DNA from: Thermodesulfobacteriota bacterium
Lineage (GTDB): Bacteria; Desulfobacterota_D; UBA1144; Nemesobacterales; Nemesobacteraceae
Direction: 5' to 3'
Assembly: GCA_965202785.1 (NCBI GenBank)
Contig: OZ241855.1
Span: forward strand, 754,633 to 818,632
Length of the DNA: 64,000 nucleotides
Below the pieces are notes generated by a model, which was not told the DNA's origin, did not search any database, and saw only the letters and a program-made list of their open reading frames with translations. Positions 9,082 through 29,942 of this stretch are shown here, piece after piece. How positions within the stretch are numbered: the first letter of the stretch is position 1; each line of letters opens with the position of its first letter. The translations under genes were made by a program, and so were the position numbers.

Positions 9082-9177
9082 AGCAATCTACTTTGGAACT
9101 CATGAAATTGTCAGATTATGGATGCTGTTACAAATTGTCTGGCAGAAAAAATTTTGGGACTTATATACGATGCTATA

Positions 9178-10122: not shown

Positions 10123-10296
10123 TTTCCGTTATTAAGCTGTGAAAAACCGTCCAGAAAACTCTATTTTACCCTGTCTTTTCAGAAAATATTGACTGCGGTG
10201 GCGGATGAAGACACCGGATTTTTGCGCAAGCCGCATGTAACAAGGTATAAATTTATCCTGATTAGCGGGCGTTTCGCGTCGTGTATTTTTCGGGAT

Positions 10297-11546: not shown

Positions 11547-11556
11547 TTCCCTTTAG

Positions 11557-12849
11557 ATGAACCAAAGAACCGCAGCTGTCCTGTCAGCCGTTTTCCTGCT
11601 CTTTTTCTACCTTTCCTGTGAAAGACCCCCGGAGATTCCGAGCCCCGAGTCCATGCGGGAGGTTCCCGCGTTCCCCGAGATGGACGACGACCTTTTCCCT
11701 GAGGGACTGAAGGAATCCATCGGCGCAAGCGTCGAGAAACTTTCGCAGAAAAAGGATTCCCAGCTTGTTTTCGGACAGAAAACCGTCTCCGCAGGGGACT
11801 ACGCGCTCGCACTCGGTTATCTTCTCGCCAAGCTTGAAGCGGGCGTTACCAAGGATGATTTCATAAAGGACGTAAGGGAAAATTTCGATTTCTACGGCTT
11901 TCCGGGAAAACCCTGGGGCAAGGTTTTTATAACATCTTACTTTTCTCCGGTGCTTTCCGCTTCCCGAACCAGGACACCGCAGCATACCCAGCCGCTATAC
12001 GGGGTTCCCGCCGACCTGGTGCGCCTGAGGATAGACAGGTTCGTCGAGCGATTCGAGAGATTTTCGTTTCTTGAGGACGACAAGATCGCCCGGGGAAAGC
12101 TTCAGTCCCTTTACGGCAGAGTCGCCTCCGGAGGCCCTGGCAGGACGTCGGAGCTGGTTCCCTATTATTCTCGAAGCGAGATAGACTCCGGGGGAAGGCT
12201 CAGGGGGAAAAGGCTTGAGATCGCGTGGGTAGACCCTGTTGATGCGTTTTTTCTTCAGGTTCAGGGCTCGGGTAAAATAAGGTTTGCGGACGGAGAAGAG
12301 CGGGTCGTGGGCTACGCCGCCCAGAACGGACACGATTACGTGGCGATAGGGAAATTTCTCTTCGAGTGGATTCCGAAGGAAAAAATGAGCCTTTGGGCCA
12401 TAGAAAGCCACCTGAGATCCCTCTCCTACGCGGAGAGGATGAAGATTCTTTACAAAAACCCTAGTTACATTTTCTTCCGCGGACTTGCGGGCAAGCCGGA
12501 AACTTCTTTCGGAACGGAAGTCGTCGACGGCAGGACTGTAGCGACCGACAAGGCTTTTTTCCCCAGGGGGGCGCTGGCGTTCATGGAGTTTGAGAGACCG
12601 GTTTTCGAAACTCCCTCTTCAGTTGAGCCGTCGCAGTGGGAACCGGTTTCCCGCTTTGTCGTTAACCACGACAGCGGCGGAGCCATAAAAGGGGCCCGGC
12701 GCGTCGACCTTTTCTGGGGGGAGGGAAAAGACGCCTCCCGGCACGCGGGTGTGATGAAAAACTGGGGAAAGTTCTTCTATCTGGTGCCGAAGGGGGAATT
12801 CCTGACGGTGCTTAGGGCAAAAAACGGCGGCCAGGGCCAAGGAGGATGA
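11557..12849 (+). CDS. mltA: Membrane-bound lytic murein transglycosylase A (lipoprotein)
   Basis: Lipoprotein signal (FFYLSC), and an MltA-like core (AWVDPVDAFFLQVQGSGKIRFADGE...GHDYVAIGK). Confidence 0.75.
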   Translation: MNQRTAAVLSAVFLLFFYLSCERPPEIPSPESMREVPAFPEMDDDLFPEGLKESIGASVEKLSQKKDSQLVFGQKTVSAGDYALALGYLLAKLEAGVTKDDFIKDVRENFDFYGFPGKPWGKVFITSYFSPVLSASRTRTPQHTQPLYGVPADLVRLRIDRFVERFERFSFLEDDKIARGKLQSLYGRVASGGPGRTSELVPYYSRSEIDSGGRLRGKRLEIAWVDPVDAFFLQVQGSGKIRFADGEERVVGYAAQNGHDYVAIGKFLFEWIPKEKMSLWAIESHLRSLSYAERMKILYKNPSYIFFRGLAGKPETSFGTEVVDGRTVATDKAFFPRGALAFMEFERPVFETPSSVEPSQWEPVSRFVVNHDSGGAIKGARRVDLFWGEGKDASRHAGVMKNWGKFFYLVPKGEFLTVLRAKNGGQGQGG

Positions 12850-12850
12850 G

Positions 12851-13786
12851 ATGACCGACGAAAAAACACTTGCATGCTCCCAGATGTCTTCCCAGAGCGG
12901 AGAACATCTCTACGGAACCGCTCTTGAGGTGAAAAACTGGTTTTTGCTTGAGTACTCCGGAGTATGGAAAAGGGATGCTTTTCCGGAAAGTGCGCTGCCG
13001 GAGGAGGTAAAGGAGCATCTTGGAGGCTTTCTCTCGTCTTTTGAGGAATCCAGGATTCAGCTGATAGGGGGGCCGGGCCCAAGCAAGGGAAACCCCGCTT
13101 TTTACTACGCGCACTCCTCTGAGTTTTCCCCGAAACTCTACAGGTTCGAGATAGAAACATACGAAGACCTCCTCTCGATAGACCTCCCCGAGCTTGTCCG
13201 CACCGGGGAGATAGAGAAATTCTCCTGCGAAGAAACGCTCGTTCTGGTCTGCACCCATGGAGCCCGCGACGGATGCTGCGCGGTCACAGGGGCTGAAGTT
13301 TACAGGGAGCTTCTAAAAAAAGAGGGGATTTCCGCGTGGAGAACCACCCACGTCGGGGGCCACCGCTTCGCCGCCAACATGATCATGCTTCCCGAGGGGA
13401 TATATTACGGGAGGGTAAACGGCGGAAATCTCGATGATGTCGTTTCCTCTCACCTTCGCGGCGAGATATTTCTTGACTGCTACAGGGGGAGGTCGTGTTA
13501 TTCCCAGACTTCGCAGGTTTCCGACTATTTTCTGAGAAGGGAGATAGAAAAACTCGGCATTTACGATATAAGATGGGAATTCGAAAAAGACAACGAGGAT
13601 TATACCGCGGTCGAGTTCGGGGTCGAAGGAGAAACCACGGTTTACGCCATAGGCACGGTGGTTATGAACCATAGCGTAAAGCTCCGGACGAGCTGCGATT
13701 CACAGGAAGTAAAGGGCATGCCTCAGTTCTTTTTCTACAGCATCGTACCCTACGAGCCTCAGAAGAAGGAAGAAGAGGATTCCTGA
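12851..13786 (+). CDS. Sucrase/ferredoxin-like (thioredoxin-like ferredoxin) family protein
   Basis: CTHGARDGCC motif followed by HVGGHRFA, 311 aa. Confidence 0.5.
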   Translation: MTDEKTLACSQMSSQSGEHLYGTALEVKNWFLLEYSGVWKRDAFPESALPEEVKEHLGGFLSSFEESRIQLIGGPGPSKGNPAFYYAHSSEFSPKLYRFEIETYEDLLSIDLPELVRTGEIEKFSCEETLVLVCTHGARDGCCAVTGAEVYRELLKKEGISAWRTTHVGGHRFAANMIMLPEGIYYGRVNGGNLDDVVSSHLRGEIFLDCYRGRSCYSQTSQVSDYFLRREIEKLGIYDIRWEFEKDNEDYTAVEFGVEGETTVYAIGTVVMNHSVKLRTSCDSQEVKGMPQFFFYSIVPYEPQKKEEEDS

Positions 13787-13794
13787 TCGCCCGC

Positions 13795-14748
13795 CTAGGG
13801 CGAAGCGCGCCGCCGTCCCAGAGATTCTGTGAAATCAAGAATTTCCTGCGAAAGACGCATAGAGCTTTCCTCGTCGGGGATTAGAGTGTCCGTGACGAAA
13901 ACACTTACTCCCAGGGCTTCTATGGCTGCCGCCTCTCCCGCATCCGAGCGGTCAATAACGAGCACGTCCAGAAAATCGGCGTAAAGCCTGGCCACCTGGG
14001 TAGAAGAAGCCTCCATTCCAAGTCCCCTCATGAGCTTGTCTGCCGGACCCTTAAGGGGTTTTCCGCGCATAAGGGGACTTACGGCAACCTTGAGTCCCGG
14101 CGCGCCGACCAGCCTTTCTCTCACTTCCTTTATCTCGAGTATGGGACCTATGCTGATTATCGGGTTGCTCGGGCATATGATTACAAGGTCGGCGCCATCT
14201 ATCGAGTCAAGAACCAGCGGGGCCGGAGACGCCTCGCGCGCCCCTTTTATCTTGACTCCGCGCACCTCGGGACGCATCGCGTGCTTTATGTAGTATTCCT
14301 GGAAGTGCATCTCGCCCGCGTCCGTCTCTATCCATGTCTCGACCCTGTCGTCGCTCATGGGCAGTATGCGCAGTTCCCCGAGGCCGAAGCGTTGCGCTAT
14401 CTTCGAAGTGGATTCGCTGAGGGTCCCGCCCCCGTCGGTAACGGCTTTTCTGAACAGGTGAGTGGCGAGATCCCTGTCCCCGAGCCCGAACCACGTCGGA
14501 AAACCGAACCTCGCGGCGGCTCCCAGGAACTCGAACGTGTCGCCTCGGAGCCCCCACCCTTTTTTTTCGTCTATGCTTCCCGAAAGCCTGTAGATTATGG
14601 TGTCTATGTCCGGAGAAACCCTCATTCCGTAAAGATCCATGTCGTCCGCAGTGTTCACTATTACGGTGAGTTCCGACGGGGGAATTATCCCCGTGAGTCC
14701 TTTAAGGAATTTCGCGGCTCCGCTTCCGCCGCCAAGTGCCGTTATCAT
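13795..14748 (-). CDS. CofD/YvcK (UPF0052, 2-phospho-L-lactate transferase-like) family protein
   Basis: N-terminal MITALGGGSGAAKFLKGL glycine-rich motif. The start was set at the internal Met, which has a GGAGAAA ribosome-binding site. Confidence 0.6.
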   Translation of the reverse strand: MITALGGGSGAAKFLKGLTGIIPPSELTVIVNTADDMDLYGMRVSPDIDTIIYRLSGSIDEKKGWGLRGDTFEFLGAAARFGFPTWFGLGDRDLATHLFRKAVTDGGGTLSESTSKIAQRFGLGELRILPMSDDRVETWIETDAGEMHFQEYYIKHAMRPEVRGVKIKGAREASPAPLVLDSIDGADLVIICPSNPIISIGPILEIKEVRERLVGAPGLKVAVSPLMRGKPLKGPADKLMRGLGMEASSTQVARLYADFLDVLVIDRSDAGEAAAIEALGVSVFVTDTLIPDEESSMRLSQEILDFTESLGRRRASP

Positions 14749-14898
14749 CTGAGTTTCTCCGTGCCCCGGATATTTCACCTGTAAGCTATTTAAGCCCCTT
14801 ATCCGTGTCAAGCCGGGAACTGCGCGGCCCCCTGCGGCGGCTTGAAAGTTAGTACCGGCTCATATAGAGTTTAGTTCGTCTTTTCAAGGAAAACCCCG

Positions 14899-16488
14899 TT
14901 GGCATTCGATATCATAAAAGACAAGCGGAGCCTTCTCACTAAGGCCCTACTTCTGCTGCTCGCCCTTACTTTCGTTATCGGTTTCGGATACGTTGGGGGA
15001 ATAAGCATAGGAGGGAGAGGTCCCAGCGGCGGAGTTGCGGTTGAGGTCAACGGGGACAAGGTTTCCCTCGCGGAGTTCTATAACCTCAGGGATTCGATGC
15101 TTGACCGCCTGCGCCGCAGCGACCAGCAGATCTCGGACGAGCTTTACGAATACGTGAATTTTTCCGTGATCGACTCGCTGGTTAACAAGAAGCTGCTCGC
15201 CCAGAAGGCCGAAGAACTGGGAATCAGGGTAAGCCAGGAGGAGCTTTCAGACGCAATAAGAAACGACCCGGGTTTCCAGGTGGACGACGCTTTCGTGGGG
15301 TTTGAGCGCTACCGGGACTTTATTTCAAGGGGACTTAACCGCACCGTGAAGGATTTCGAGGACTCCTACAGGGAGGATCTTCTTGTGGCCAAGCTCGTTT
15401 CGGTCCTTGACAGTTCCGTAACGGCGAGCGAAGAGGAACTTTTAAGCATCTACAGGGCGCGCGAGGAGAAAATCGATCTTCACTACGTCTCGTTTGCGGC
15501 ACGGGATTACCTTGAAGGCCAAAAACCGGGCGAAGAGGAAATCGCACGGTATTACAGAAAAAACACCGATCTTTTCTGGGAACCTGAGAAACGCGTGGCG
15601 CGCTACGTGAAACTCGCTCCCGGGGATTTCACCGAGGATGCCGAGGTTTCCGACGAGGAAATCGAGGCCTACTACACGACTTACCCGGAGGAATTTCTTT
15701 CCGAAGGGACCCCGAAACCGTTTGACGACGTAAAGGGGGATATAAAAAAGCAGCTCGTGGATGGCAAGTCCAAGCTTCTCTACGACCAGTTCCTTGAGGA
15801 GTTCCTCCAGAAACGCTCCTTCTCGGACCTTCTTTCCGAAAAAAGCTCGCTTGAGGTGAAAGAAACCGCGGAGTTTGCCCTCGGAGGCGTGAGCGGAGAC
15901 GTTCCCGGCGCCGTAAGAAGAGAGGCTTTTTCGGTGAAGAAAAAGAGGCTTTCAAGCGTGGTGCTTCGGGATTTCACCTGGTTTTTCGAGGTAACCAGGG
16001 TCAAGTCCTCAAAGCGGTCGGGAATTGAGCCCGCGCGCGGGGAGATTATAGAGGCGCTGAAAAGGGAAAAGGCCGTTGATCGGGCCAGAGAATCCGCCGG
16101 GGGCAGTCTCGCGAAAATAACCGCCTCTGGCAAAGGTTTCTCCGGGGCAGCCAAGTCCCTGGGTCTTTCGGTGGAGCGCACCGGTTTTTTCTCACGGTCC
16201 GAGGATCCCCTGGAAGTCGAATCCGGGGATTTCATCTCAGATGTCTTCGGCCTTAGAAGCAACCGTTCTACCCCCAATCGTGTCTACAAGTCGGGGGAGA
16301 CTTTCTACATAGTGTCGCTTGCGAAGACAAAGCCCGCCGACAGCGGGTACTTCGGGAACGAGAGGGATTCTCTTAGGCGCCAGGAGGTTTCGTTGCGAAA
16401 AATGCTTGTGATCGAACGCCTGCTTGAGAGCCTCAGAGAAAGCTCCAAGATCTCGCCCAACAAGAACCTTCTTTCCCAGGGAGGATAA
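14899..16488 (+). CDS. Periplasmic chaperone PpiD-like protein (SurA N-terminal domain); TTG start
   Basis: N-terminal membrane anchor, then a SurA_N-like region, 529 aa. The start codon appears to be TTG. Confidence 0.5.
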   Translation: MAFDIIKDKRSLLTKALLLLLALTFVIGFGYVGGISIGGRGPSGGVAVEVNGDKVSLAEFYNLRDSMLDRLRRSDQQISDELYEYVNFSVIDSLVNKKLLAQKAEELGIRVSQEELSDAIRNDPGFQVDDAFVGFERYRDFISRGLNRTVKDFEDSYREDLLVAKLVSVLDSSVTASEEELLSIYRAREEKIDLHYVSFAARDYLEGQKPGEEEIARYYRKNTDLFWEPEKRVARYVKLAPGDFTEDAEVSDEEIEAYYTTYPEEFLSEGTPKPFDDVKGDIKKQLVDGKSKLLYDQFLEEFLQKRSFSDLLSEKSSLEVKETAEFALGGVSGDVPGAVRREAFSVKKKRLSSVVLRDFTWFFEVTRVKSSKRSGIEPARGEIIEALKREKAVDRARESAGGSLAKITASGKGFSGAAKSLGLSVERTGFFSRSEDPLEVESGDFISDVFGLRSNRSTPNRVYKSGETFYIVSLAKTKPADSGYFGNERDSLRRQEVSLRKMLVIERLLESLRESSKISPNKNLLSQGG

Positions 16489-16506
16489 CTTTCCGCCCGG
16501 AAAGTT

Positions 16507-16542
16507 GAAAAACCACTTCATCTTGTGGTATAATTTAAATTG
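16507..16542 (+). promoter_or_regulatory. Candidate promoter TTGAAA-N18-TGGTATAAT (extended -10) upstream of smc
   Basis: It follows the ppiD-like gene and a ctttccg/cggaaag hairpin. Confidence 0.35.
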
Positions 16543-16742
16543 ACCGGAAGGCCTTGATCGATAAGGGATCTTTTTCACGTACCGCCGAAGAGTTATCCCG
16601 GCGGCTTTCTTCAGGATTCTGGCCCCTTCAGGACTTCTATATATAGATGCGGGAGTTTTAACTTTCCCGGCCACGGCGAGGGTTTTGCGTGAAACGGGCG
16701 GCGGCGCGCGTGGACGCAACGATGCCGGGCCGCGGTTCTCCC

Positions 16743-19700
16743 ATGAGAATTAAAGCACTTGAAATAGCAGGTTTTAAATCTTTTTACCTGAAGACGAGAA
16801 TAGACTTCTCCGAGGGCATAACCGCGATAGTCGGTCCCAACGGCTGCGGAAAATCCAATATTCTCGACGCCATCAGGTGGGTAATCGGCGAACACAACCC
16901 GAGACAGCTGCGCGCGGGGGGGATGGAAGACGTTATCTCCAACGGGAGCGCCGAGCTCAAGCCCCTGGGCATGGCCGACGTGTCCATGGTCCTCGAGGAG
17001 GTCGAGGGCTTCGGTTTCGAGGAAGTCAGGATCCGGAGGAAACTTTACCGCTCGGGAGAGAGCGAATACAGCATAAACGGGGTCAAGTGCCGCCTCAAGG
17101 ACATAACCGAGATGCTTCTTGACACCGGAGTGGGCGCGAGGGCCTATTCGATCGTCGAGCAGGGCCAGGTCGAGTCCTTCATAATGTCGAAGCCCGAGGA
17201 GAAAAGAAAATTCATAGAGGAAGTCGCGGGGATCGAGAAGTACAAGCTCAGAAGAAAGGAAACCCGAAGCAGGATAGAGTCGACGAGGGAGAACCTCTCC
17301 CGCGTTCTTGACATGAAGCGCGAGGTCTCGGACCGCATTGAGGCCGTGGCGCTTCAGGCAAAGCGCGCTAGGCAGTACGAGGAGCTTACCGGGCGGGCCC
17401 GCTCGCTTGAATTTGATGTTCTCTCGGCCAAGCTCTCAGGCTCGCAGCAGCGCAAAGAAGCGCTTGTTGAAAAAAAGCTCGGGGCGGAGCAGTTCGTCCG
17501 CTCAGCCGACGCCGAGCTGGAGCAAAAGCGCGGACTGCTTCAAGAGGCGAGGGAGAAAAACTCCGTTTCAGGCCAGGATCTGGGTTCCCTTGAGAAGGAG
17601 ATCTACGAGCTTCGGGCGCAGAAAAGGGAAAACGAGTACCGCAGGTCGTCGATCGAACGGGAGACCGCCGGTATTTCAAGCTACGTAAGGAACATTGAAG
17701 CCGAGATAGAGAGCCTCGGGCGCGAAGTCTCGGAGATGGAGGAGAAAAGCAGCCGCGCGGGGCGCCAGTCAGAGGAACTTAAAAACACGCGTCTTTCGGC
17801 TTCCGAGGAGATTTCGCACGAGGAACAGAACCTTGTGACCTTAAAAAGCGAATGGGAGCGGAGCAAAAAGGAACTCGAGGAAACTGCGGAGCTGGTCTCT
17901 GAAGTGATGACCAGAAGAAGCTCGCTTGGAAGCACCATAGGCGCTTTCTCAAAGGAGCTTGAGGAGCTTGCGGAGAAAAAAGAGGTACTTGAGGGGGAGG
18001 CTTCCGCCTTGGGACTTGAAAAACTCGAGTGCGAGAGAAGGCTTGCCTCGCTTCGCAGCCGGGAAGGGGAAATAAAAGACGAATTCACCTCGGCCACCAG
18101 AGAAAAAGAAGAGATCGATTCGCGTCTTTACGACCTTAGGGTCGAGCACGAGAAGAAACTCGGCGAACTGAGAGGTCTTGAAGGCAGAAAAAAAGACTGC
18201 GTCTCCAGAGTGGAGGCCCTTAACAAAATACAGAGCAACTACGAATGGCTTCCCGACGCCACGCGCAAGTTCGTGCTCGAGCGCAAGCAAAGGGGCGTGC
18301 TGGGGGTCGTTTCCGATTTCGTTTCCGTTCCGAGAAACTACGAAAGAGCGGTCGAGGCAGCCTTCGGGGAAAAACTCAACTGGATAGTTGTCGAAGGGAG
18401 TACGGAGGCGGTCGCCGCGGTTGAGCTTCTAAGGGAGTTTGACGCGGGAAGGGGAACCTTCATACCGGCAACCGACCAGTTCGCGGCAAACGGTTCAGAG
18501 AACGGAAACGGCAGGGCCAACGGACACGGCAAGCCGGATGCCACCTCCCTTAACAGCCTCCTTGACGTGAAAGTGATAGAGAAGAGCCTTGTTGACTCGA
18601 TGCTGCAGGAAGTTTACGTCGCTTCCGATCTGAGGGAAGCCATCAGGCTTAAGAGCCGGACGGGAAACGGTGCGTGCTTTGCCACTCTGGAGGGAGACTA
18701 CGTCGATTCCCAAGGGGCTGTGACGGGCGGAAAATCCCTGGCAGGTGTGTTTGAGAGAAAAAGGGAAATCGAGGAGCTTGAGGGGCAGACACAGACCCTT
18801 TTGGCCAACATAGAGAAACTCGAGTCCGCCTGCAGGGCGCTTAAAGAGGAGATGGATGCGCTTGCGGGCCGCCGGACGCAGGTCGAGGAACTTCTTCGGC
18901 GCTGCGAGATAAACTCGGTTGAGAACGCAAAAGACCGCTCGAACGCGGAGACCAGGATTGAAGAGCTGGGAACGAGAATCGCGAGCCTCGAGGTGCAGCG
19001 CGACGAACTTGAGGGCAAGCTCGGGAGCAAGAACCGCACCGTCGAGGAAATGGAACTGCTCATAGGGCAGCTTGACGGCCAGAGAGGCGAGCTTGAGTCA
19101 AGATACGGGGAAATCGAAAAGCGGGCTCTTGGGTTTGCGGAGGAGGAAAAAGCGCTTCAGGAGAGGATAACGAAACTCAGGATAGAGAACGCCGGGGTTC
19201 TTGAAAGGGAAAAGGCTCTTGAGCACGAGATATCGGAAGCCGAGAGAATAAAGGCGGTTATAAACGAGAAGCTTTCGCTCAGAAGAAAGGATGGAGAGCT
19301 TAAAAAACAGGAGGCCGAAGCGCTTGCCCTGTCGGGACGCCAGGCGGAAGAGGAGTTTGAGAAGATCTGCCGCGACCTCGACTTAAGAGAGGAGTCCTTC
19401 GGGGAACTCAGGGAAAGGGTGTCGCGCTACGCGGAGGAACTCCGCGGAAGCGAAGAGGAATTCGAAGCCGCCTCACAAGAACTTTCCTCGCGAAGAGAGC
19501 AGCTTGCCTCGGCCCAGGCGCGGCTTGAACGCGCGGAGGACGAGTTTGAGTATCTGAGCGAACGGTACGCAGAGACGTTCGGCGATGATCCCCCCGATAC
19601 CTCGCAAAGCCAAAATCTCTCCCATGTTTCGATACCCGATGCGGAAAGGGAGCTTAAGACGCTTCGGCGGCGCGTAGAGAATTTCGGTCCCGTGAACCTG

Positions 19701-20279
19701 CTTGCGCCCGAGGAATACGAGCAGCTTGAGGAGAGAAACGTGTTTCTCCAGCGCCAGACCGATGACCTCGCCCGGGCGCTTGATTACTTGGAAGGCGCCA
19801 TAAGGAAACTCGACAGGGAGTCGGTTTCAAGGTTCCGGGAGGCGTTTGAAACCGTAAACGGGAAATTCAGCGAAACCTTCTGCAAGCTTTTCGAAAACGG
19901 AGAGGCTCGCCTTGAGCTTATAGACCCCAGGAACCTGCTTGAAACCGGAGTGGAGGTCATGATAAGGCCCGGAGGAAAGCGGTTCCAGCCGATAAACTTG
20001 CTCTCGGGAGGGGAAAAGGCGCTTTCGGCCATAGCGGTCATAATCTCCGCGTGCCTGGTAAAGCCCGTTCCCTTTGTGTTCCTGGATGAAATAGACGCCG
20101 CGCTTGACGAAGTGAACACGGTGAGGTTCAACAAGATCCTGAGCGAGATATCGGCCCATTCCCAGGTGGCCGTCATCACGCATAACAGAAAAACCATGCA
20201 CGAGGCTGACGCGCTTATAGGAATAACCACAGACGGTACCGCCGCTTCTAGGGTCGTAAGCGTGAAGCTTGACGCCTGA
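16743..20279 (+). CDS. smc: Chromosome segregation protein SMC
   Basis: MRIKALEIAGFKSF...GPNGCGKSN Walker A, long coiled coils, a hinge, and a C-terminal LSGGEKAL signature. The ORF-track start at 16689 is probably an N-terminal over-extension. Confidence 0.92.
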   Translation: MRIKALEIAGFKSFYLKTRIDFSEGITAIVGPNGCGKSNILDAIRWVIGEHNPRQLRAGGMEDVISNGSAELKPLGMADVSMVLEEVEGFGFEEVRIRRKLYRSGESEYSINGVKCRLKDITEMLLDTGVGARAYSIVEQGQVESFIMSKPEEKRKFIEEVAGIEKYKLRRKETRSRIESTRENLSRVLDMKREVSDRIEAVALQAKRARQYEELTGRARSLEFDVLSAKLSGSQQRKEALVEKKLGAEQFVRSADAELEQKRGLLQEAREKNSVSGQDLGSLEKEIYELRAQKRENEYRRSSIERETAGISSYVRNIEAEIESLGREVSEMEEKSSRAGRQSEELKNTRLSASEEISHEEQNLVTLKSEWERSKKELEETAELVSEVMTRRSSLGSTIGAFSKELEELAEKKEVLEGEASALGLEKLECERRLASLRSREGEIKDEFTSATREKEEIDSRLYDLRVEHEKKLGELRGLEGRKKDCVSRVEALNKIQSNYEWLPDATRKFVLERKQRGVLGVVSDFVSVPRNYERAVEAAFGEKLNWIVVEGSTEAVAAVELLREFDAGRGTFIPATDQFAANGSENGNGRANGHGKPDATSLNSLLDVKVIEKSLVDSMLQEVYVASDLREAIRLKSRTGNGACFATLEGDYVDSQGAVTGGKSLAGVFERKREIEELEGQTQTLLANIEKLESACRALKEEMDALAGRRTQVEELLRRCEINSVENAKDRSNAETRIEELGTRIASLEVQRDELEGKLGSKNRTVEEMELLIGQLDGQRGELESRYGEIEKRALGFAEEEKALQERITKLRIENAGVLEREKALEHEISEAERIKAVINEKLSLRRKDGELKKQEAEALALSGRQAEEEFEKICRDLDLREESFGELRERVSRYAEELRGSEEEFEAASQELSSRREQLASAQARLERAEDEFEYLSERYAETFGDDPPDTSQSQNLSHVSIPDAERELKTLRRRVENFGPVNLLAPEEYEQLEERNVFLQRQTDDLARALDYLEGAIRKLDRESVSRFREAFETVNGKFSETFCKLFENGEARLELIDPRNLLETGVEVMIRPGGKRFQPINLLSGGEKALSAIAVIISACLVKPVPFVFLDEIDAALDEVNTVRFNKILSEISAHSQVAVITHNRKTMHEADALIGITTDGTAASRVVSVKLDA

Positions 20280-20382
20280 AGCCAGAAATTCCTTGTCTAT
20301 TTCCCACGGATTATTAGACTGTTTTAGGAGAGCTGTTCCCGAGCATTGCGGGAACCGTTAGCAAAGGAGACCGCTTCGGCGC

Positions 20383-23238
20383 ATGATTTCTTACGTCCTG
20401 AAAAAAATAGTCGGCTCGCAGAACGAAAGGGAGGTAAAGAGGCTCGGCGTTTTTGCAGAGCGGATAAATACCCTTGAAGAAACCCTGGTTAAGGTTCCCA
20501 CGGCGGAGCTTCGCGCGAAAACCTCGCAGTTCCGGGAACTGATACATTCCCGCCTCGGTACAAACGGAAATCCGTCCGACGAGAAATATTTCGCTGAGAT
20601 GGAGCGGGTTCTCGAGGAGATCCTGCCGGAGGCGTTCGCCGCCGTAAGGGAAGCGTCAAGAAGAACGATAGCCATGAGGCATTTTGATGTCCAGATGATA
20701 GGGGGAATGGTTCTTCACAGAGGCAGAATAGCCGAGATGAGAACCGGGGAGGGAAAGACACTGGTCGCCGTCTTGCCCCTTTACTTAAACGCCCTCACCG
20801 GGCTCGGTTCCCACCTTATCACGGTAAACGATTACCTGGCTGCAAGGGATGCCACCTGGATGTCGCCGATTTTTATGGTCCTAGACATGAAGGTGGGAGT
20901 TATAAATCACGACGCCTCCTACGTACTTGCCTGGGAGGACCCCAAGCGGGCCGAAGAGTCGGTAGAGAAAAACCTGACCGCGTGGCCAAACGAGTATCTG
21001 GCGAGCGATGTTCTTCCCGAAAAAAACCTCGACATCATAAATTCCTTCAAGACCTGCCTCGAGCCTTCATCCAGGCAGGATTCCTACCAGGCGGATATTA
21101 CCTACGGTACCAACAACGAGTTCGGTTTCGACTACTTGCGCGACAACATGAAGTTCTCTCTTGAGAGCTACGTTCAGCGCGGCCACAATTTCGCCATAGT
21201 GGACGAGGTCGACAGCATTCTCATAGACGAGGCTAGAACCCCGCTTATAATCTCAGGGCCTTCGGAGGACTCGACCGATCTTTACTACAAGGTGGACAAG
21301 GTGGTGAAGACGCTCTCCGGGAAGACCGATTTCACGGTGGACGAGAAAACAAGGCAGGTGGATCTTACCGAGGAGGGGGTTTCCAAGGTGGAGAGGGACC
21401 TCGACGTTGCGAACCTCTACGATCCCGTCAGCCTCAAGATTCTCCACCACGTTAACCAGTCGCTTCGTGCCAATGCCCTTTTCAACCTCGACGTCGACTA
21501 CATGATGCAGGACGGGAAGGTGGTTATAGTCGACGAGTTCACGGGAAGGCTCATGCCGGGGCGCAGGTGGAGCGACGGGCTTCACCAGGCGGTTGAGGCC
21601 AAGGAAGGGGTGGAAATCGAAAGCGAGAACCAGACGATGGCCACCATAACCATCCAGAACTATTTCAGGATGTACAGAAAGCTTGCCGGTATGACGGGTA
21701 CCGCCGACACAGAAGCGTTTGAGTTTAAGCACATATATGATCTTGACGTCACCGTGATACCGACCCACAAGCCGCTTGTAAGGAAAGATTACGAAGATGT
21801 TGTCTACAGGACCGAGCGCGAGAAATTCAACGCCGCGTGTGCGGAGATAAAGGAAATGAATTCCGCCGGCCGGCCGGTGCTTGTCGGCACCTCGTCGATC
21901 GAGCAGTCGGAAAAACTGGGCGAGTACCTTGAGAAGATAGGTCTTGGACACAACGTGCTTAACGCCAAACAGCACGGAAAGGAGGCCGAGATCGTCGCCC
22001 AGGCGGGCAGAATAGGGTCCATAACCATAGCGACCAACATGGCGGGTAGGGGAACGGACATACTGCTCGGCGGGAATCCCGAATTCCTTGCAAGGGATAT
22101 TCTCAGGAAAGAGCTCAGGGTCCAGCCCGAGGAAGCAGATCCCAAGCAGTACGAGGAAGCGCTTTTCGAGGCGAAATCGATCTGCGATTCGGAAAAGGAG
22201 AAAGTTAAGGAACTCGGCGGACTTCATATCCTTTCGGTCGAAAGACACGAGGCTAGGAGGATAGATAACCAGTTTAGGGGAAGAGCGGGAAGGCAGGGAG
22301 ATGACGGATCTTCTAGGTTCTATGTTTCCCTTGAAGACGACCTGATGCGTATTTTCGCCTCGGAGAGGATAACGGGAGTCATGGACAAGCTCGGATGGGA
22401 GGAAGGGGAGCCGATTGAGCACTCGATGATAAGCAAGTCGATTGAGAACGCCCAGAAAAAGGTCGAGGGAAGGAATTTCGACATCCGCAAGCATCTTTTG
22501 AGGTACGATGATGTTCTCAACACGCAAAGGGACGTTGTCTACAGCCAGCGCCGCGAGATACTTGAAGGCGGTGAGAGCCTCAGAGAGATAGTTTTTTCGT
22601 CTTCAGAAGACATCGTTCGGGAAGTTGTGAGCGACTACTTGGCAGGGCGGGACGACCGCCCGGAATCTGATTTCTCCGAGCTCTGCGAAGTTATCGGGAG
22701 AATTTTCGGAACGGAAATCGAGATAGAAGCCTCCGGCAAGGCGGACGGGGAAGTCATAACGGAAGAAGTCACCGGAAAACTGATTGCCGCATACCGGGAA
22801 AAAGCGGAGAAAATAGGCCCTGAGCACCTCTCGCAGGTCGAACGCTACGTCATGCTTCAGCACATCGACTACCTCTGGAAGGATCATCTTCTTAACATGG
22901 ATCACCTTAGGGAAGGGGTGGGACTCAGGGGATACGCACAGAAAGACCCCCTTCGGGAATACACCAAAGAGGGCTTTGACATGTTCACTCTCATGATGGA
23001 CAAGTTCAGGATGGATGTCTGCTCGAATCTTTTCAGGATACAGCCCGCGAGTGAAGAACAGATCGAGGAACTTGAGAGAAAAAGAGAGCTTGAGGAAAAA
23101 AAGATGGTGCTCGGGCGGGGAGAAGGGTCGGAAGAAAAGGCCAAGACGCCGGTCAGGAGAACGCAGAAGAAAGTCGGTCGGAACAGCCCGTGCCCTTGCG
23201 GCAGCGGCAAGAAATACAAAAAGTGCTGCGGTCGGTAA
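20383..23238 (+). CDS. secA: Preprotein translocase ATPase SecA
   Basis: DEAD-motor motifs, and a C-terminal zinc finger [14 protein letters not shown], 951 aa. Confidence 0.95.
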
Positions 23239-23260
23239 TAATATTGGATAGGGTGTCTTA

Positions 23261-23527
23261 ATGGCTGGGAAAATCTATGTTCGCAGGGGAAGAGTTCCTT
23301 TTTTCTCTCTTCCTTTCATCGCACTTTTCGTGGTCGTGGCCGTCTGCCTTTTCGCATTTTTCGGCTTTCTGGCTCTGGTTGCATTAGGAGTGCTCGGAGC
23401 AGGGGCCTCGGTTTTGAGGAAGCTGTTTCCGGGCAAGGATAGAAAACCCGGTCCCCGCGCGGGCGAACCCGGAGGGGATACTATTACCCTCGGAGAGGAC
23501 GATTACGAAGTAAGAGATGTAGACTAG
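23261..23527 (+). CDS. Hypothetical small membrane protein
   Basis: One or two TM helices followed by an acidic tail. It is not otherwise recognisable. Confidence 0.3.
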   Translation: MAGKIYVRRGRVPFFSLPFIALFVVVAVCLFAFFGFLALVALGVLGAGASVLRKLFPGKDRKPGPRAGEPGGDTITLGEDDYEVRDVD

Positions 23528-23555
23528 CTTCCCCGGACGGCGCGTGGAACTCGCG

Positions 23556-23846
23556 TCAGAGTGCCTTTTCTATTTCCTCCGCCAGACTCAGGTCTTTTTC
23601 CGTGATTCCACCCTCGCTGTGGGTTGAAAGGGTGATGGAAACCTTGTTCCACCGTATGAGAATGTCGGGGTGGTGGTCTGCCCTTTCGGAAAGAAGGGCG
23701 ACCTTGTTCACAAAACCCATGGAATCGACAAAATTTCTGAGAACGAAGGTTTTTTCTATCTCTTCTCCCTTCCTCTGCCACCCCTGAAGGCCGTCGAGTG
23801 CGGAAGAAATTTCTTTTTCGGTTAGAAGTGCCATATATTTTTTCAT
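23556..23846 (-). CDS. phhB: Pterin-4a-carbinolamine dehydratase
   Basis: HHPDILIRWNKVSITLSTHSEGGITEKD motif, 96 aa. Confidence 0.85.
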   Translation of the reverse strand: MKKYMALLTEKEISSALDGLQGWQRKGEEIEKTFVLRNFVDSMGFVNKVALLSERADHHPDILIRWNKVSITLSTHSEGGITEKDLSLAEEIEKAL

Positions 23847-23858
23847 TATATATTAACC

Positions 23859-24392
23859 GTGATGAGTATTCCATTGAATGACTCTGAAGCTTCGCCAAGT
23901 GTTGTTTTCATAGGTATCGGCGGCAACATCGGCCCCGTCCGCGAGAATTTCGCCAAGGCCCTTAAAAGCATCGAAAAGCGCGCGCGCGTGGCGGCCGTAT
24001 CCTCCCTTTACGAATCGGATCCCGTGGGACCGCAGGACCAGCCGAAGTTCACAAACGCTGTCGTTAAGGCGGAAACGGAACTCTCCCCTTTTGAGCTCCT
24101 TGATTACCTCAAGACAATCGAAAAGGAGATCGGGAGAAAAAAAACGAAGAGGTGGGGACCCAGGGTGATAGATCTTGACATAATCTTCTACGGAGACCTC
24201 GTAATAAGCACGGATTCCTTGGTAATTCCTCACCCGAGGGCGCACGAAAGAAGATTTGTCCTGGAGCCCCTGCTCGAGATAGAACCGGACGCCTGGCATC
24301 CCGCAAAGAACATGGCGGTAAGGGATATATGTTCCGGGCTAGGGGATTCGCAAGGGATTTCGAAAACTGACGGCCCAGGGGTGCTTCGCTGA
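23859..24392 (+). CDS. folK: 2-amino-4-hydroxy-6-hydroxymethyldihydropteridine pyrophosphokinase (HPPK)
   Basis: VFIGIGGNIG...GPRVIDLDIIFYG...PHPRAHERRFVLEPL. Confidence 0.88.
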   Translation: MMSIPLNDSEASPSVVFIGIGGNIGPVRENFAKALKSIEKRARVAAVSSLYESDPVGPQDQPKFTNAVVKAETELSPFELLDYLKTIEKEIGRKKTKRWGPRVIDLDIIFYGDLVISTDSLVIPHPRAHERRFVLEPLLEIEPDAWHPAKNMAVRDICSGLGDSQGISKTDGPGVLR

Positions 24393-24404
24393 CCCGGTTT
24401 GGGG

Positions 24405-25262
24405 CTACTTGTTCTGCGCAAATATCTCCGCCGCCTCAAGCGTGTTCCAAAGAAGCATGGTTACGGTCATCGGACCCACCCCGCCGGGAACGGGGGTTAT
24501 GTAGGAGGCCTTTTCCTTTACGTCCTCAAAGTCAACGTCGCCAACGATCTTTCCTCTCTCGTTCCTGTTGATTCCGACATCGACTACTACAGCTCCGTCT
24601 TTTATCATCTCTTTCTTTATGAACTGCGGGTCGCCTATCGCGACTATCAGTATGTCAGCCATGGTGGTTATGGACGGCAGGTTTTGAGTTTCGATATGGG
24701 CTATGGTGACGGTGGCGTCCCTGTTGAGCATCAAGGCCGCCGCGGGTTTTCCAACTATGTTGCTTTTTCCCACGACCACTACGTGCTTGCCTAATACCTT
24801 TATGTCGTAGTAATCGAGAAGTTTTTCTATTCCGTACGGAGTACAGGAGATGGCGCTAGGGTTTTCTTGGAACAGCTTTCCGGTGTTCTCGGGGTGAAAT
24901 CCGTCGGCATCTTTGTCCGGGGATATCTTTCTTATCACTCTTGCTGGATTCATATGGGAAGGAAGGGGAAGCTGTACCAGTATGCCGTGAATCTTTTCAT
25001 CCAGGTTGAGGCGCTCGATCAGAGAAAGAAGCTCCTCTTCTGAGGTTTCCTCAGGAAGATTGTGTTCTTCTGAAAGCATTCCGCATCTTCCGCATGCCCT
25101 TCTCTTGTTCCTCACGTATATTTCGGACGCGGGATCGGTGCCGACCAGGATGGAAGCAAGACCGGGCACTACGCCCGTGCGGTCTTTAAGTTCCTTGGTC
25201 TTTCGGATGATCCATTCTTTAATGTCTTGAGAGACCTTTTTGCCATCCATGATTTTAGACAT
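24405..25262 (-). CDS. folD: Bifunctional methylenetetrahydrofolate dehydrogenase/cyclohydrolase
   Basis: GLASILVGTDPASEIYVRNKRRAC...HGILVQLPLP, 285 aa. Confidence 0.92.
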   Translation of the reverse strand: MSKIMDGKKVSQDIKEWIIRKTKELKDRTGVVPGLASILVGTDPASEIYVRNKRRACGRCGMLSEEHNLPEETSEEELLSLIERLNLDEKIHGILVQLPLPSHMNPARVIRKISPDKDADGFHPENTGKLFQENPSAISCTPYGIEKLLDYYDIKVLGKHVVVVGKSNIVGKPAAALMLNRDATVTIAHIETQNLPSITTMADILIVAIGDPQFIKKEMIKDGAVVVDVGINRNERGKIVGDVDFEDVKEKASYITPVPGGVGPMTVTMLLWNTLEAAEIFAQNK

Positions 25263-25467
25263 GTTCAGTTCCCTTTTTTTCGAAAGATGGCCGGTTGGAA
25301 AATTATTAGTATAATCGACTCCGGCGGGTTAATCCACATTGGACCAGATTTATCTGGATAGTTTCGACAAGGTTGGTCAACTATGCACTTAGGCAGCAAT
25401 AGAAATTTTGGAGTTTCAGACCTTTTAGGCGACCGGCCCGATCAGAGCCGAACCTTGGGAAGCGTTA

Positions 25468-26436: not shown

Positions 26437-27231
26437 TCAGGTTTTTCCGAGGTGATTAAGGGGTCCGTGTCCCTTTCCTATCTCCAGAGAATTTCTTATC
26501 GCCTCCGTGACAAAGGCTTTCGAATTCTCAAGGGAAGTTGAAAGAGGCATTCCCTTTGCCAAAAAAGCGCACACGGCCGCCGAAAATGTGCAGCCCGTTC
26601 CGTGGGTGTTCTTCGTTTCGATTCTCTCGCTAACCAGTTCTTCAAATATCTCCCCGTCGAAAAAAATATCTACCGCCGGGTGTTCTTTCGCAAGATGTCC
26701 CCCTTTTACAAGAACCGCCTTCGCTCCAAACGAGAGGATCTTCTCGGCTGCGGTCTTCATATCGCTTATGCCGCTTATGCTGACAGAACTCAGTATTTCT
26801 GCCTCGGGTATGTTCGGAGTTACTATGAGTGCCCTGGGGAGAATCTCTTTTTTTAGAAGTTCCGTCGAGTTTTTTAAAAGGGCGGTTCCACCTTTTGAGC
26901 TCATCACAGGGTCGACAACGAGCTTCTCAATTGCATACAGGTCTATTTTTTCCGCCACGGCCTCAATGATTTTTTCGTTGGAAAGCATCCCGAGCTTAGC
27001 GGCGTCGCAGCCTATATCGCTCATCACGGCGTCAAACTGCAGCCCCACGAACTGCTCGGGAAGGTCGTGGATTGCGCTTACCTCCAGCGTATTCTGGGCG
27101 GTAACGGAGGTGAGCACCGAAAGTCCGTACACTCCCAGGGCAGTGAAAGTCTTAAGGTCAGCCTGGATTCCTGCCCCTCCTCCTGAATCGGACCCGGCAA
27201 CGGTAAGCGCTCTTGGGATTTTTTCCGCCAC
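26437..27231 (-). CDS. thiD: Hydroxymethylpyrimidine/phosphomethylpyrimidine kinase
   Basis: [30 protein letters not shown]-terminus, 264 aa. Confidence 0.9.
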
Positions 27232-27370
27232 GTAAGGATTCTACAAATTCACCTGTTTTTTACAAACCCGGACAAGGGCTTACGCCGCGGGTCTTTACTG
27301 GAATTGAAAACTGTTTTCAGTTGTATATAATTTCCCTTCACGTTAAGCGATCGTTTAAGGAGAGAGTGTC

Positions 27371-27778
27371 ATGAGCGAAGATATTTTCAGACAGGATTTG
27401 TTTTCAACCGACGATGAGGGCAGAGTGAGACTGATTGCGGGTTACTGCAAGGAATCCGACAACTGGACCTTTCCAAGGTATCTTGCGGATCCAGTGAGTT
27501 TTACAGACGATGTGGAAGAGAAGTTTCTAAGCCCCACAGGCATTCTGCATTCCTTCACGGTTGTGAGAAGAAGCATGCCGGAATTTAAGGTGCCCTACGT
27601 TCTCGCTCTTGTTGATTTTCCGGAGGGGGTAAGGGTCATGGCGCAGGTTGAAACGGAAGATCCCGATTCTCTTGAGTTCGGCGAGGAGATGGCCGTGACG
27701 ATCGGTGTGATAAAAACGGCGCCCGACGGAACGGATGTAAGCTCCTACAAGTTTATTCCCGTAAGAGAGTGCTCCTGA
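27371..27778 (+). CDS. DUF35-like OB-fold protein (acyl-CoA-associated Zn-ribbon/OB-fold family)
   Basis: It is 135 aa with the DUF35-type architecture. The zinc-ribbon cysteines are largely missing. Confidence 0.4.
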   Translation: MSEDIFRQDLFSTDDEGRVRLIAGYCKESDNWTFPRYLADPVSFTDDVEEKFLSPTGILHSFTVVRRSMPEFKVPYVLALVDFPEGVRVMAQVETEDPDSLEFGEEMAVTIGVIKTAPDGTDVSSYKFIPVRECS

Positions 27779-27947
27779 TCAGTAGCATTTTCCGTGCTAC
27801 AAAACTTTTTACTTTCTGCAACACTCTGCTTGTTTATTAATTTTAGCCGTACACGCAGATTCTAGGTTTTTTTGGAGGGTTAGGGGTGTGGAGGGATCCT
27901 TAAAAATTTCTTGCGTAGTGTACTGTAATACCGTACAGTAGATAAAG

Positions 27948-28239
27948 ATGGTCATTCGTTCTGTCCGCCACAGAGGATTGCGTCGGTTGATTGAGGATGA
28001 CAATTCCCGGTTCTTGGGGCGTGACTTGGTGGACCGTGTACGCAAGATACTAACGGCACTTACTTCTTGCTGAGAACATGGATAGTTTTATCACAGATGC
28101 ACCACCTAGATGGCGTGTTCATAGGCTTTTAGGCGATAGGCGAGACGAATGGAGCGTTTCGGTATCCGGTAATTGGAGGATCACTTTTAAAGAAGATGAA
28201 GGCGACATTTACCGCTTGAACTTGGAGGATTATCACTAA
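27948..28239 (+). pseudogene. higB: higB (HigB/GraT-type RelE-superfamily toxin) disrupted by a frameshift
   Basis: The frame starting at 27948 encodes MVIRSVRHRGLRRLIEDD...ILTALTSC* (41 aa, stop at 28071). The +1 frame continues ...RVHRLLGDRRDEWSVSVSGNWRITFKEDEGDIYRLNLEDYH* up to the TAATG overlap with higA. Confidence 0.7.
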
Positions 28240-28544
28240 TGACTGCTAAAAGCATTGAAGTGAATATGACCCCTTCGCATCCAGGTGACTTCATCCGCAC
28301 GGAGGTTGTTGAGGAGTTGAGCCTGACCGTGACTAAAGCAGCTGAGATTCTAGGGGTTCGCCGTGCAACGCTTTCCGATCTGCTGAACGGCAAAACCGCA
28401 CTGTCGCCGGAAATGGCCCTTCGCATTGAAAAAGCTTTCGGGGTGGGCATGGAAATGCTGTTACGGATGCAAGCATGGTACGATGCTTCACAAATGCGAG
28501 CCCGCGCAAGCGATATCAGTGTGCAGCGCTACGAACCCTCCTAA
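28239..28544 (+). CDS. higA: HigA antitoxin (XRE-family HTH)
   Basis: HPGDFIRTEVVEELSLTVTKAAEILGVRRATLSDLLNGKTALSPEMALRIEKAFG. Its start overlaps the higB stop in TAATG. Confidence 0.85.
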   Translation: MTAKSIEVNMTPSHPGDFIRTEVVEELSLTVTKAAEILGVRRATLSDLLNGKTALSPEMALRIEKAFGVGMEMLLRMQAWYDASQMRARASDISVQRYEPS

Positions 28545-28580
28545 TGAGCACAGCTTTTCCACTGGGGATTCATTGGTTTT

Positions 28581-29942
28581 TCAGGAAAATTTGGCGATCG
28601 TTTCTTTAAGCGTTCTCTCCACGATTTCCCTTATTTCCGCAAGCCTAGATTCGGTCTGAGCTTCGAACCGGAGCACAAGGGCAGGCTGGGTGTTGGATGC
28701 GCGGAGAAGTCCCCATCCGTCCGGGTACTCAACCCTGACTCCATCTATGTCAACCACTTCGTTTTGCTCCCCGAGCTTTTTCTTTACCGCTTCCGTTACC
28801 TGAAACTTGATCTCATCGGGACAATCAATTCTTATCTCCGGGGTTGCGAAGGTCTTAGGTAACCCTGTAAGCAGTTCCGAAGCCTTCTTTCCCGTTTTTG
28901 AGAGGATTTCAAGAAACCGAAGTCCTGCGTAAAGAGCATCATCGTATCCGAAAAACCTGTTTTTAAAGAAAATGTGGCCGCTCATCTCCCCTCCGAGTTC
29001 CGCACCCTCCTTTTTCATCTTGTCCTTGATTACCGAGTGGCCGGTTTTCCACATGATGGGATTCCCGCCGGCTTCCCGTATCTTGGAGAAAAGATTTCCC
29101 GAACACTTAACGTCCCCTATTATGGTTGCTCCCGGGTTCGTTTCGAGAAGATCGAGCGAATAGACAAGGAGAAGCATATCTCCGCTCATTGAGTTTCCCT
29201 GCTCATCGACAATTCCTATCCTGTCCGCGTCCCCGTCAAATGCCAAACCCACGTCAAGGCCGGCCTCCAAGATCTTTTTCTTTATGTCAGAGAGGTTCTC
29301 CTCGACCGTGGGATCCGGGTGGTGGTTCGGAAAATCCCCATCAGGATCCATGTAAAGCTCATGAACTTCGCAGCCGAATCTCCTGAGTATCTGCGGGCAG
29401 GCCACTCCGGCGGTTCCGTTGCCGCCGTCAGCTGCGACTTTTATTCCCGGTTCTATATGAAGATTCTGCTCTAAAAACCCGAGGTAGCGCTCAACTATGT
29501 CCGACTGTCTCTTTCTCCCCGTTCCCGTTTTGAACTTGCCCTCTTCGACCGATTCTCTTATTTTCTGTATGCCTTCGCCGAAAAGGGAATTCTGACCGAC
29601 GCACATTTTAAGCCCGTTGTACTCGGAGGGATTGTGACTGGCAGTTACCATCACCCCGCCGTCAACGCCCGATGTGAAGGTGGAGAAATAAACCATCGGG
29701 GTCGTTACCATCCCTATGTCGACCACACTAACGCCGGTTGAGGTTATTCCTTCGCAGAGTGCGTCCCGGAATGCCGGGGAGGATTTCCTGCAGTCGTATC
29801 CAACGGAAACCTCTGTCCCCCCGTCCTCGGCCACCATGGTTCCATAGGCTTTTCCGATTCTCTCGACGACCTCTTCTGTGATGCTCTCTCCCGCTATGCC
29901 CCTTATGTCGTATTCTCTGAATATAGCTTTGTCGGCAACCAA
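28581..29942 (-). CDS. Phosphomannomutase/phosphoglucomutase (alpha-D-phosphohexomutase family)
   Basis: Active-site TASHNPSEYNGLK and a metal-binding DGDADR loop, 453 aa. Confidence 0.88.
   Translation of the reverse strand: MVADKAIFREYDIRGIAGESITEEVVERIGKAYGTMVAEDGGTEVSVGYDCRKSSPAFRDALCEGITSTGVSVVDIGMVTTPMVYFSTFTSGVDGGVMVTASHNPSEYNGLKMCVGQNSLFGEGIQKIRESVEEGKFKTGTGRKRQSDIVERYLGFLEQNLHIEPGIKVAADGGNGTAGVACPQILRRFGCEVHELYMDPDGDFPNHHPDPTVEENLSDIKKKILEAGLDVGLAFDGDADRIGIVDEQGNSMSGDMLLLVYSLDLLETNPGATIIGDVKCSGNLFSKIREAGGNPIMWKTGHSVIKDKMKKEGAELGGEMSGHIFFKNRFFGYDDALYAGLRFLEILSKTGKKASELLTGLPKTFATPEIRIDCPDEIKFQVTEAVKKKLGEQNEVVDIDGVRVEYPDGWGLLRASNTQPALVLRFEAQTESRLAEIREIVERTLKETIAKFS

Follow-up and report, generated by a model that had tools for sequence, protein, structure and literature searches.

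The stretch of DNA analysed here (the window: 64,000 nt of contig OZ241855.1) carries, at positions 27948–28544, a chromosomal type II toxin–antitoxin (TA) module of the Proteus vulgaris HigB/HigA type, in which the toxin gene higB is broken by a frameshift and the antitoxin gene higA is intact. We put at roughly 80% the probability that higB was recently pseudogenised by a genuine 1-nt insertion, an ordinary first step of TA decay. The lesion was located by comparison with six metagenome loci (L001–L006) that were retrieved by an exact-sequence look-up of HigA and encode a HigA identical to that of the window. In the alignment the window reads CTTACTTCTTGC (CTTA[C]TTCTTGC) and L001, L003 and L006 read CTTATTCTTGC (CTTA-TTCTTGC); one extra C stands at 28063, and no different single-base removal recovers the sequence of the relatives. 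The first-pass annotation, which was made from the letters of this DNA, had suggested alignment to intact higB homologues as the way to pinpoint the indel and had suspected a homopolymer at the site. The alignment gave a single inserted C, flanked by A and T and outside any homopolymer.

With C28063 removed, the gene encodes a 96-aa protein that is 100% identical to the intact HigB of L001, and the two higB genes differ at 4 of 290 aligned bases, none of which changes an amino acid. Because the C-free protein equals L001 HigB residue for residue, the break is recent and is the sole defect in the gene. In the window, the frame is broken at 28063 and closes at a stop codon at 28071–28073. The frameshift falls in codon 39, which the structural model described below places at the end of helix α2, and the predicted 41-aa product would contain β1, α1 and α2 only. 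Residues H58, D94, Y95 and H96, helix α3 and four β strands all lie in the out-of-frame second fragment; with the catalytic residues and the α3/β-sheet core out of frame, an active toxin is not expected. Judged by its sequence, the higB of the window is a pseudogene of the family and not a functional member, and in annotation 27948–28239 is better treated as a single higB pseudogene carrying one frameshift than as a pair of small open reading frames (ORFs) or a gap. The following features (window coordinates) make up the module and its surroundings.

27371–27778, plus strand: DUF35 / OB_ChsH2_C gene (left flank), 135 aa, Pfam PF01796 at 56.2 bits; inside the presumably imported tract.
27385–28650, no strand: probable recombination tract of about 1.27 kb, which spans DUF35 and the higBA islet and takes in the 3′ tip of the right-flanking gene; from three-way informative sites and sliding identity.
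27782–27800, plus strand: terminator-like hairpin followed by a T run, directly 3′ of the DUF35 stop; a weak candidate from the consensus scan alone.
27872–27878, plus strand: upstream TTGGAGG copy, where relatives have TTGGAGGATT; the second repeat copy is at the higB 3′ end (locus comparison).
27910–27947, plus strand: conserved 38-nt control block upstream of higB, CTTGCGTAGTGTACTGTAATACCGTACAGTAGATAAAG, kept in L011, L017, L020 and L030.
27948–28073, plus strand: higB fragment 1, from ATG 27948 to TGA 28071–28073, 41 codons, MVIRSVRHRGLRRLIEDDNSRFLGRDLVDRVRKILTALTSC followed by the stop.
28054–28239, plus strand: higB fragment 2, frame +1, 61 codons, with internal ATG 28078 (native Met44) and TAA 28237–28239, ending in LLLAENMDSFITDAPPRWRVHRLLGDRRDEWSVSVSGNWRITFKEDEGDIYRLNLEDYH followed by the stop.
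28063, plus strand: inserted C in codon 39 (ATT to A[C]TT), the sole higB lesion, from alignment to L001, L003 and L006.
28224–28228, plus strand: GGAGG, read from the sequence as the Shine–Dalgarno motif of higA, 10 nt 5′ of its ATG and within the higB 3′ end.
28239–28544, plus strand: higA, intact, 101 aa, HTH_3/HigA-family antitoxin (TIGR02607, PF01381).
28581–29942, minus strand: phosphoglucomutase/phosphomannomutase (PMM) gene (right flank), convergent, 453 aa, Pfam PGM_PMM domains I–IV.

Fragment 1 retains native codons 1–38, which are followed by T-S-C and TGA. At the other end of higB, the TAA overlaps the ATG of higA in TAATG at 28237–28241, all intact relatives being arranged likewise, and the higA ORF runs through 101 codons without interruption. 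The order of the genes, toxin first with an overlapping antitoxin gene, points to the operon architecture of higBA modules. Together the two genes form a 0.8-kb islet between the convergent DUF35 and PMM genes, both housekeeping genes, and no mobile-element genes flank the islet. The first-pass annotation had read most of this anatomy correctly: the ORFs confirmed its coordinates and split frames, with the stop at 28071–28073 and a second frame running to TAATG; its intact HigA antitoxin with a helix–turn–helix (HTH) domain was borne out by the 101 unbroken codons and the TIGR02607 match (86.6 bits), and its DUF35 and convergent phosphomannomutase flanks by PF01796 and PGM_PMM. It had also called the islet AT-rich. 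The 0.8-kb islet stands; its AT-richness is only mild, since it has 47.5% GC and the window averages 51.3% (standard deviation 3.5% over 800-bp windows, 11% of which are equal or lower). Most of this dip comes from the 169-bp upstream spacer (38.5% GC), and higA itself has 52.9% GC. Two antisense ORFs overlie the module, one of 78 aa over higB (27809–28045, minus strand) and one of 87 aa over higA (28187–28450, minus strand); we dropped both as probably not genes and regard them as by-products of the conserved sense genes, because the 87-aa ORF antisense to higA recurs in related loci.

Several comparisons place the broken toxin and its partner in the P. vulgaris HigB/HigA family. The joined 96-aa HigB matched PF05015 (HigB-like_toxin) at 37 bits (gathering score 27) over profile positions 2–91 of 91; when the halves were searched alone, the C-terminal one scored 23.1 bits and the N-terminal one gave no match. 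A phmmer search aligned the joined protein end to end with its nearest solved relative, P. vulgaris HigB (4MCT; expect value (E) 1.5e-14, about 35% sequence identity), including the His and the C-terminal EDYH motif, such that H58, D94, Y95 and H96 correspond to P. vulgaris H54, D90, Y91 and H92. Across 39 homologues, D94 and Y95 are invariant and H96 is nearly so. HigB of this family is a ribosome-dependent mRNA endonuclease, and its catalytic residues matter for activity, an importance reflected in the Protein Data Bank (PDB) titles 'HigB DeltaH92' and 'Y91A variant'. By analogy with the family, the ancestral toxin would have been a ribosome-dependent mRNA endonuclease as well.

The fold was modelled with AlphaFold2 on P0001, an intact orthologue that is 97% identical. 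The model (predicted local distance difference test score 91.3, predicted template modelling score 0.82) contains helices at 9–17, 25–40 and 44–50 and strands at 56–59, 67–71, 76–83 and 86–94, and Foldseek superposed it on 4W4G, 4PX8 and 4MCT with template modelling (TM) scores of 0.87–0.91 and root-mean-square deviations of 1.4–1.5 Å, as expected of a RelE-like fold. HigA matched the NCBIfam equivalog model TIGR02607 (HigA antitoxin; cut-off 47.7 bits) and PF01381 (HTH_3; 44.8 bits), and the nearest solved structure is P. vulgaris HigA (4MCX, E 1e-11). The module therefore resembles the HigB–HigA system of P. vulgaris plasmid Rts1 (PDB 4MCT, 4PX8, 4YPB and 9CHL) in having the toxin gene first, in the fold, in the conserved His and C-terminal D-Y-H, in the HTH_3 antitoxin and in a palindrome just upstream of higB. 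Unlike that plasmid module, it is chromosomal, lies in an uncultured sponge symbiont and has its toxin ORF broken by a +1 insertion, and its putative operator is unrelated in sequence to that of P. vulgaris. The toxin had been labelled HigB/GraT-type at first pass; HigB holds, and GraT is the less precise half of the label. Pseudomonas putida GraTA (6F8S) shares PF05015, a toxin-first operon and a HigA-type HTH antitoxin, and GraT is a weaker match than P. vulgaris HigB, with E 0.002 over residues 49–96 and a query-normalised TM score of 0.58 over 71 aligned columns.

Comparison of the same locus in related strains, which the first-pass annotation had recommended, revealed an independent series of toxin-first losses. 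In addition to L001–L006, 28 syntenic GTDB loci (L007–L033 and L039) were fetched with the PMM protein as query (PMM amino acid identity of at least 87%) and were thus chosen independently of HigA. The metagenome-assembled genomes that hold them carry the labels Candidatus Dadabacteria or Thermodesulfobacteriota; L002 and L004, which come from one sample, originate from a sponge metagenome, and Dadabacteria are mentioned in the sponge literature. The host lineage is sponge-associated Candidatus Dadabacteria. Where a left flank is present among the six identical-HigA loci, it is the DUF35 gene (L001, L003 and L005); L002 has a TPR gene instead. The DUF35/PMM site was found in the following states.

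Empty site, with the two stop codons adjoining in TGATCA: 16 of the 28 GTDB loci.
Intact higBA (6 loci): L011, L017, L020 and L030, and the window-type L001 and L003.
higB whose 5′ end has been replaced: L033; L002 (the same as L004, from one sample; TPR gene in the place of DUF35).
A different 1-nt higB deletion with loss of 31 bp of the control region: L006.
Promoter and higB lost by deletion between two TTGGAGGATT copies: L005.
higB without codons 8–89, which were deleted between two CCGC; a mini-ORF of 14 codons is left, still coupled to a frameshifted higA: L007.
higA alone: L022, L023 and L026.
bPH_2 membrane-protein gene in the position of higB: L013 and L015.
An SDH-type protease gene as unrelated cargo: L039.

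In the 19 loci that bear a module (the window, L001–L006 and 12 of the 28 GTDB loci), higB never occurs without higA. The states are spread over a neighbour-joining tree of PMM, a distribution that implies several separate events. The L005 deletion (L005:361–443, compared with L003:221–646) is bounded exactly by two copies of the 10-nt repeat and must be very recent, as the higA genes of L005 and L003 are nucleotide-identical. In L007 (5403–5902), the higB deletion is in frame; the mini-ORF that is left starts with GTG and retains both promoter block and stop/start junction, and higA is frameshifted near codon 73. The islet at the DUF35/PMM site has repeatedly been gained and eroded, and the toxin has always been lost first. 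The toxin-inactivated, antitoxin-retained state that the first-pass annotation had taken for a stage of TA decay is supported by the 1-nt lesion, the intact higA and these losses in the relatives.

The same relatives bear on the idea, also raised at first pass, that the two frames are joined by programmed +1 frameshifting, or that termination at TGA 28071 is followed by re-initiation at ATG 28078, yielding a functional toxin, full-length or in two pieces, and a regulated module. Any +1 shift within 28054–28071 would give a near-native protein, with skipping of A28062 resulting in I39L, and ATG 28078 stands 4 nt past the premature stop, where re-initiation is sterically possible and would preserve coupling to higA. 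The shift is not conserved, however: L001, L003, L011, L017, L020 and L030 have one continuous frame, and the frame break of L006 is located elsewhere and goes in the opposite direction. Direct reading of 28054–28073 found no slippery homopolymer or X-XXY-YYZ motif, no Shine–Dalgarno stimulator and no prfB-like CUU-UGA, and there is no A/T homopolymer on which transcriptional slippage could act. As for a two-piece toxin, the model predicts that the 53-aa piece, without β1 and α1–α2, would have lost about 40% of a compact single-domain fold. With the shift absent from the closest modules and neither a slippery nor a stimulatory motif present, we rejected programmed frameshifting and transcriptional slippage and regard this whole explanation as highly improbable.

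A pseudogene created by insertion, our preferred reading, also has to be seen against the mosaic structure of the region. Judged by its flanking genes, the window has L007 as its nearest relative (PMM 94.7% nucleotide identity; most 150-nt bins at 95–99%). From about 27385 to 28650, its identity is 95–99% to L001 and just 80–91% to L007; the DUF35 gene, for example, shares 97.8% of its nucleotides with L001 and about 90% with L007. The informative sites change cleanly from an L007-like to an L001-like state and then return to the L007-like one. The PMM of L001 is about 87% identical to that of the window, and the flanking genes of the donor lineage are about 13% divergent. Unless the assembly is chimeric, this pattern implies that DUF35 and the islet were imported by homologous recombination from a divergent lineage, and we infer from the mosaic of the window that homologous recombination was probably the route by which the module was gained. 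The window lineage has a fresher copy of the module than the nearly dead one of L007, a copy that has now suffered its first lesion.

What remains of the module appears capable of producing HigA. The control block is intact in the window and is kept even in modules that have diverged by about 15% in protein; it contains an inverted repeat, TACTGTA-N6-TACAGTA at 27921–27940, that is a putative HigA operator. The higA GGAGG, invariant in 7 of 7 window-type loci and a likely Shine–Dalgarno motif, lies 10 nt 5′ of the ATG and is higA's own, which implies no dependence on translational coupling; re-initiation at ATG 28078, 4 nt past the premature stop, is a further possibility. Since GGAGG and the control block are intact, we expect that HigA is still produced and goes on repressing the promoter, presumably at the predicted operator. 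A sigma-70 consensus scan of 27700–28700 returned no promoter, and an Rfam scan of 27200–28800 (E up to 1) no family; a manual promoter reading, TTGCGT-17-TACAGT, was weak (3/6 and 4/6) and was not relied on. In the mechanism that we propose, the palindromic operator region of an intact module would drive a two-gene operon, with higB (96 aa) first and its TAA overlapping the ATG of higA (101 aa), whose product would serve as HTH antitoxin and autorepressor. In the window, the extra C would shift the frame, translation would end after 41 residues and no active toxin would form; higA would keep its ribosome-binding site, promoter, operator and unchanged protein, allowing expression and repression to go on. 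In annotation, we would mark higA as an intact gene for an antitoxin and regulator that is probably expressed.

Substitution patterns point to constraint on higA. Among the GTDB loci found through PMM, the pairwise ratio of non-synonymous to synonymous substitution rates (dN/dS, ω) of higA ranges from 0.04 to 0.23 with a mean of about 0.085, and it is equal for pairs with and without higB; for L013 and L015, both of which are without higB, ω is 0.09 at a dS of 0.67. Intact copies of higB have ω of about 0.05–0.27 among them. The higA values are those of purifying selection, in pairwise figures that blend the periods preceding and following loss of the toxin, and they suggest continued selection on solitary higA without proving it.

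Is the inserted C real? The competing explanation holds that the genome carries an intact, L001-like higBA and that the C is a consensus error, possibly introduced through mixed strains. Several points weigh in its favour and against a genuine insertion. The +C allele is seen in this one assembled sequence only. The half-ORFs and the window's DUF35 and PMM are not on record in the gene-position index or the protein collection; exact look-up found neither the repaired 96-aa HigB nor the 41-aa and 53-aa half-ORFs in the protein collection, and the exact 28-nt pattern of the higB/higA junction had 0 matches in genome contigs and 0 in metagenome contigs, so that these look-ups and pattern scans supplied no second strain assembly or close copies. 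Once the C is disregarded, the gene has no flaw and encodes the amino acids of L001, as would be the case with an error. The site falls within a strain-variable mosaic tract that could in principle be an assembly chimera, and the locus is polymorphic among co-occurring strains, places at which metagenome consensus artefacts are likelier. For the fate of higA, pairwise dN/dS cannot separate the time before from the time after toxin loss, and the absence of non-synonymous changes in HigA among L001–L006, which we dropped as circular evidence of selection, arises because these loci were found by exact protein identity.

Against an error stands, first, the position of C28063 outside a homopolymer. 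Second, the window is 90.5% coding, with a longest ORF of 1196 aa, and no ORF tiled over its roughly 58 kb of coding sequence looks split; thiD, DUF35, higA, PMM and trpE have no indels relative to L001. Third, a lone random error would have a chance of about 0.5% of falling in the 291-bp higB. Last, the independent non-point lesions of higB in L005, L007, L002 and L033 indicate that inactivation of the toxin is common at this locus. Together, these observations lead us to infer that the insertion is genuine and not a fault of the assembly. The sequencing error that had been proposed at first pass is unlikely, and its homopolymer basis has fallen away.

An insertion in higB with higA retained agrees with what is known of chromosomal TA modules, the toxin-first erosion of which is well documented and makes the case of the window an ordinary one. 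Chromosomal TA systems decay by deletion or nonsense mutations (review, PMC7167474); that review cites ccdO157 in E. coli (Mine et al. 2009) as a study of TA decay. On Photorhabdus chromosomes, 185 toxin-only and 8 antitoxin-only pseudogenised copies were counted, and TA modules were acquired repeatedly at one location (Belot et al. 2026, PMC13617665). The islet resembles ccdO157 and the Photorhabdus modules in its fixed chromosomal site between conserved genes, its patchy presence, the loss of the toxin with the antitoxin kept, and repeated independent acquisition; it differs from them in TA family, in host phylum, in its lack of flanking mobile-element genes and in that a homologous-recombination tract of about 1.27 kb bearing the module is directly visible in the window. 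A HigA-based scan of Joint Genome Institute (JGI) metagenomes returned distant relatives only (at most 79% amino acid identity). Among 71 assessable HigA-homologue loci, 42 had an intact HigB upstream, 13 had a stop or a split or partial match and 16 had none, a crude count in which partial HigB matches may reflect divergence; with 42 of 71 intact, toxin-less or broken states appear common in general.

The window adds a clean natural example of toxin-first chromosomal TA erosion in an uncultured phylum of sponge symbionts. A single site in about 30 related genomes displays the intact module, a point frameshift, 5′ replacement, microhomology deletion, antitoxin alone, a frameshifted antitoxin and the empty state. 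The added value is modest and lies in an unusually complete decay series at one site together with a visible recombination tract; mobility of the module by short homologous-recombination tracts supports existing models and does not alter them. More speculatively, and with rather less than even odds, the DUF35/PMM site could serve a metapopulation of sponge symbionts as a fixed arena for TA 'reinfection and immunity', where the islet spreads, the toxin is quickly lost and HigA is kept. If so, the islet would spread by homologous recombination through its conserved flanks among Dadabacteria lineages that are about 12–13% divergent, the 1.27-kb L001-like tract in an L007-like genome being an example of such spread, and the retained HigA, which selection would maintain (ω of about 0.085 even without higB), could act as an anti-addiction immunity factor against re-invading higB. 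Alternatively, it could be a domesticated regulator or the partner of a new upstream gene, such as that for bPH_2 in L013 and L015.

In those two loci (L013:5706–6216 and L015:5701–6224, on the minus strand of each locus), a gene for a membrane protein of 129–131 aa with a bacterial PH domain (PF03703, bPH_2, 46.8 bits) lies about 58 nt upstream of higA, and the bPH_2 proteins of the two species share 75% amino acid identity; the bPH_2–higA pair may represent a partner swap or a new two-gene unit. The DUF35/PMM site of L039 (5360–6894) contains the gene of a ClpP-like serine protease of the SDH type (323 aa, PF01972) and an ORF of 64 aa, and this unrelated cargo makes the site look like a small integration hotspot. 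Empty sites (for example, L008:5357–5366) read TGA followed directly by TCA; filled ones have TCAG at both ends of the islet (window 27776–27782 and 28577–28595), and the last five codons of PMM differ between the two kinds of site (...IAKFS against ...ISEIG). These features hint at a 4-bp duplication or a microhomology-mediated insertion that rewrote the PMM tail.

In L001 (3711–3998), the intact 96-codon higB has no entry in the gene table of its 940-kb contig; gene callers may miss the HigB toxin, perhaps owing to a near-absent leader or Shine–Dalgarno motif. Elsewhere in the window, 7968–9078 encodes a 259-aa protein with HTH_3 and SocA_Panacea domains, a PanA-like antitoxin, followed by an overlapping 115-aa ORF without a Pfam match. 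In L001 (1196–1210), the Panacea gene directly adjoins the block upstream of thiD, an adjacency which indicates that the roughly 16 kb at 9084–25434 of the window are absent at the L001 position. The two overlapping genes at 7968–9078 may constitute a second TA module, of the PanAT type.

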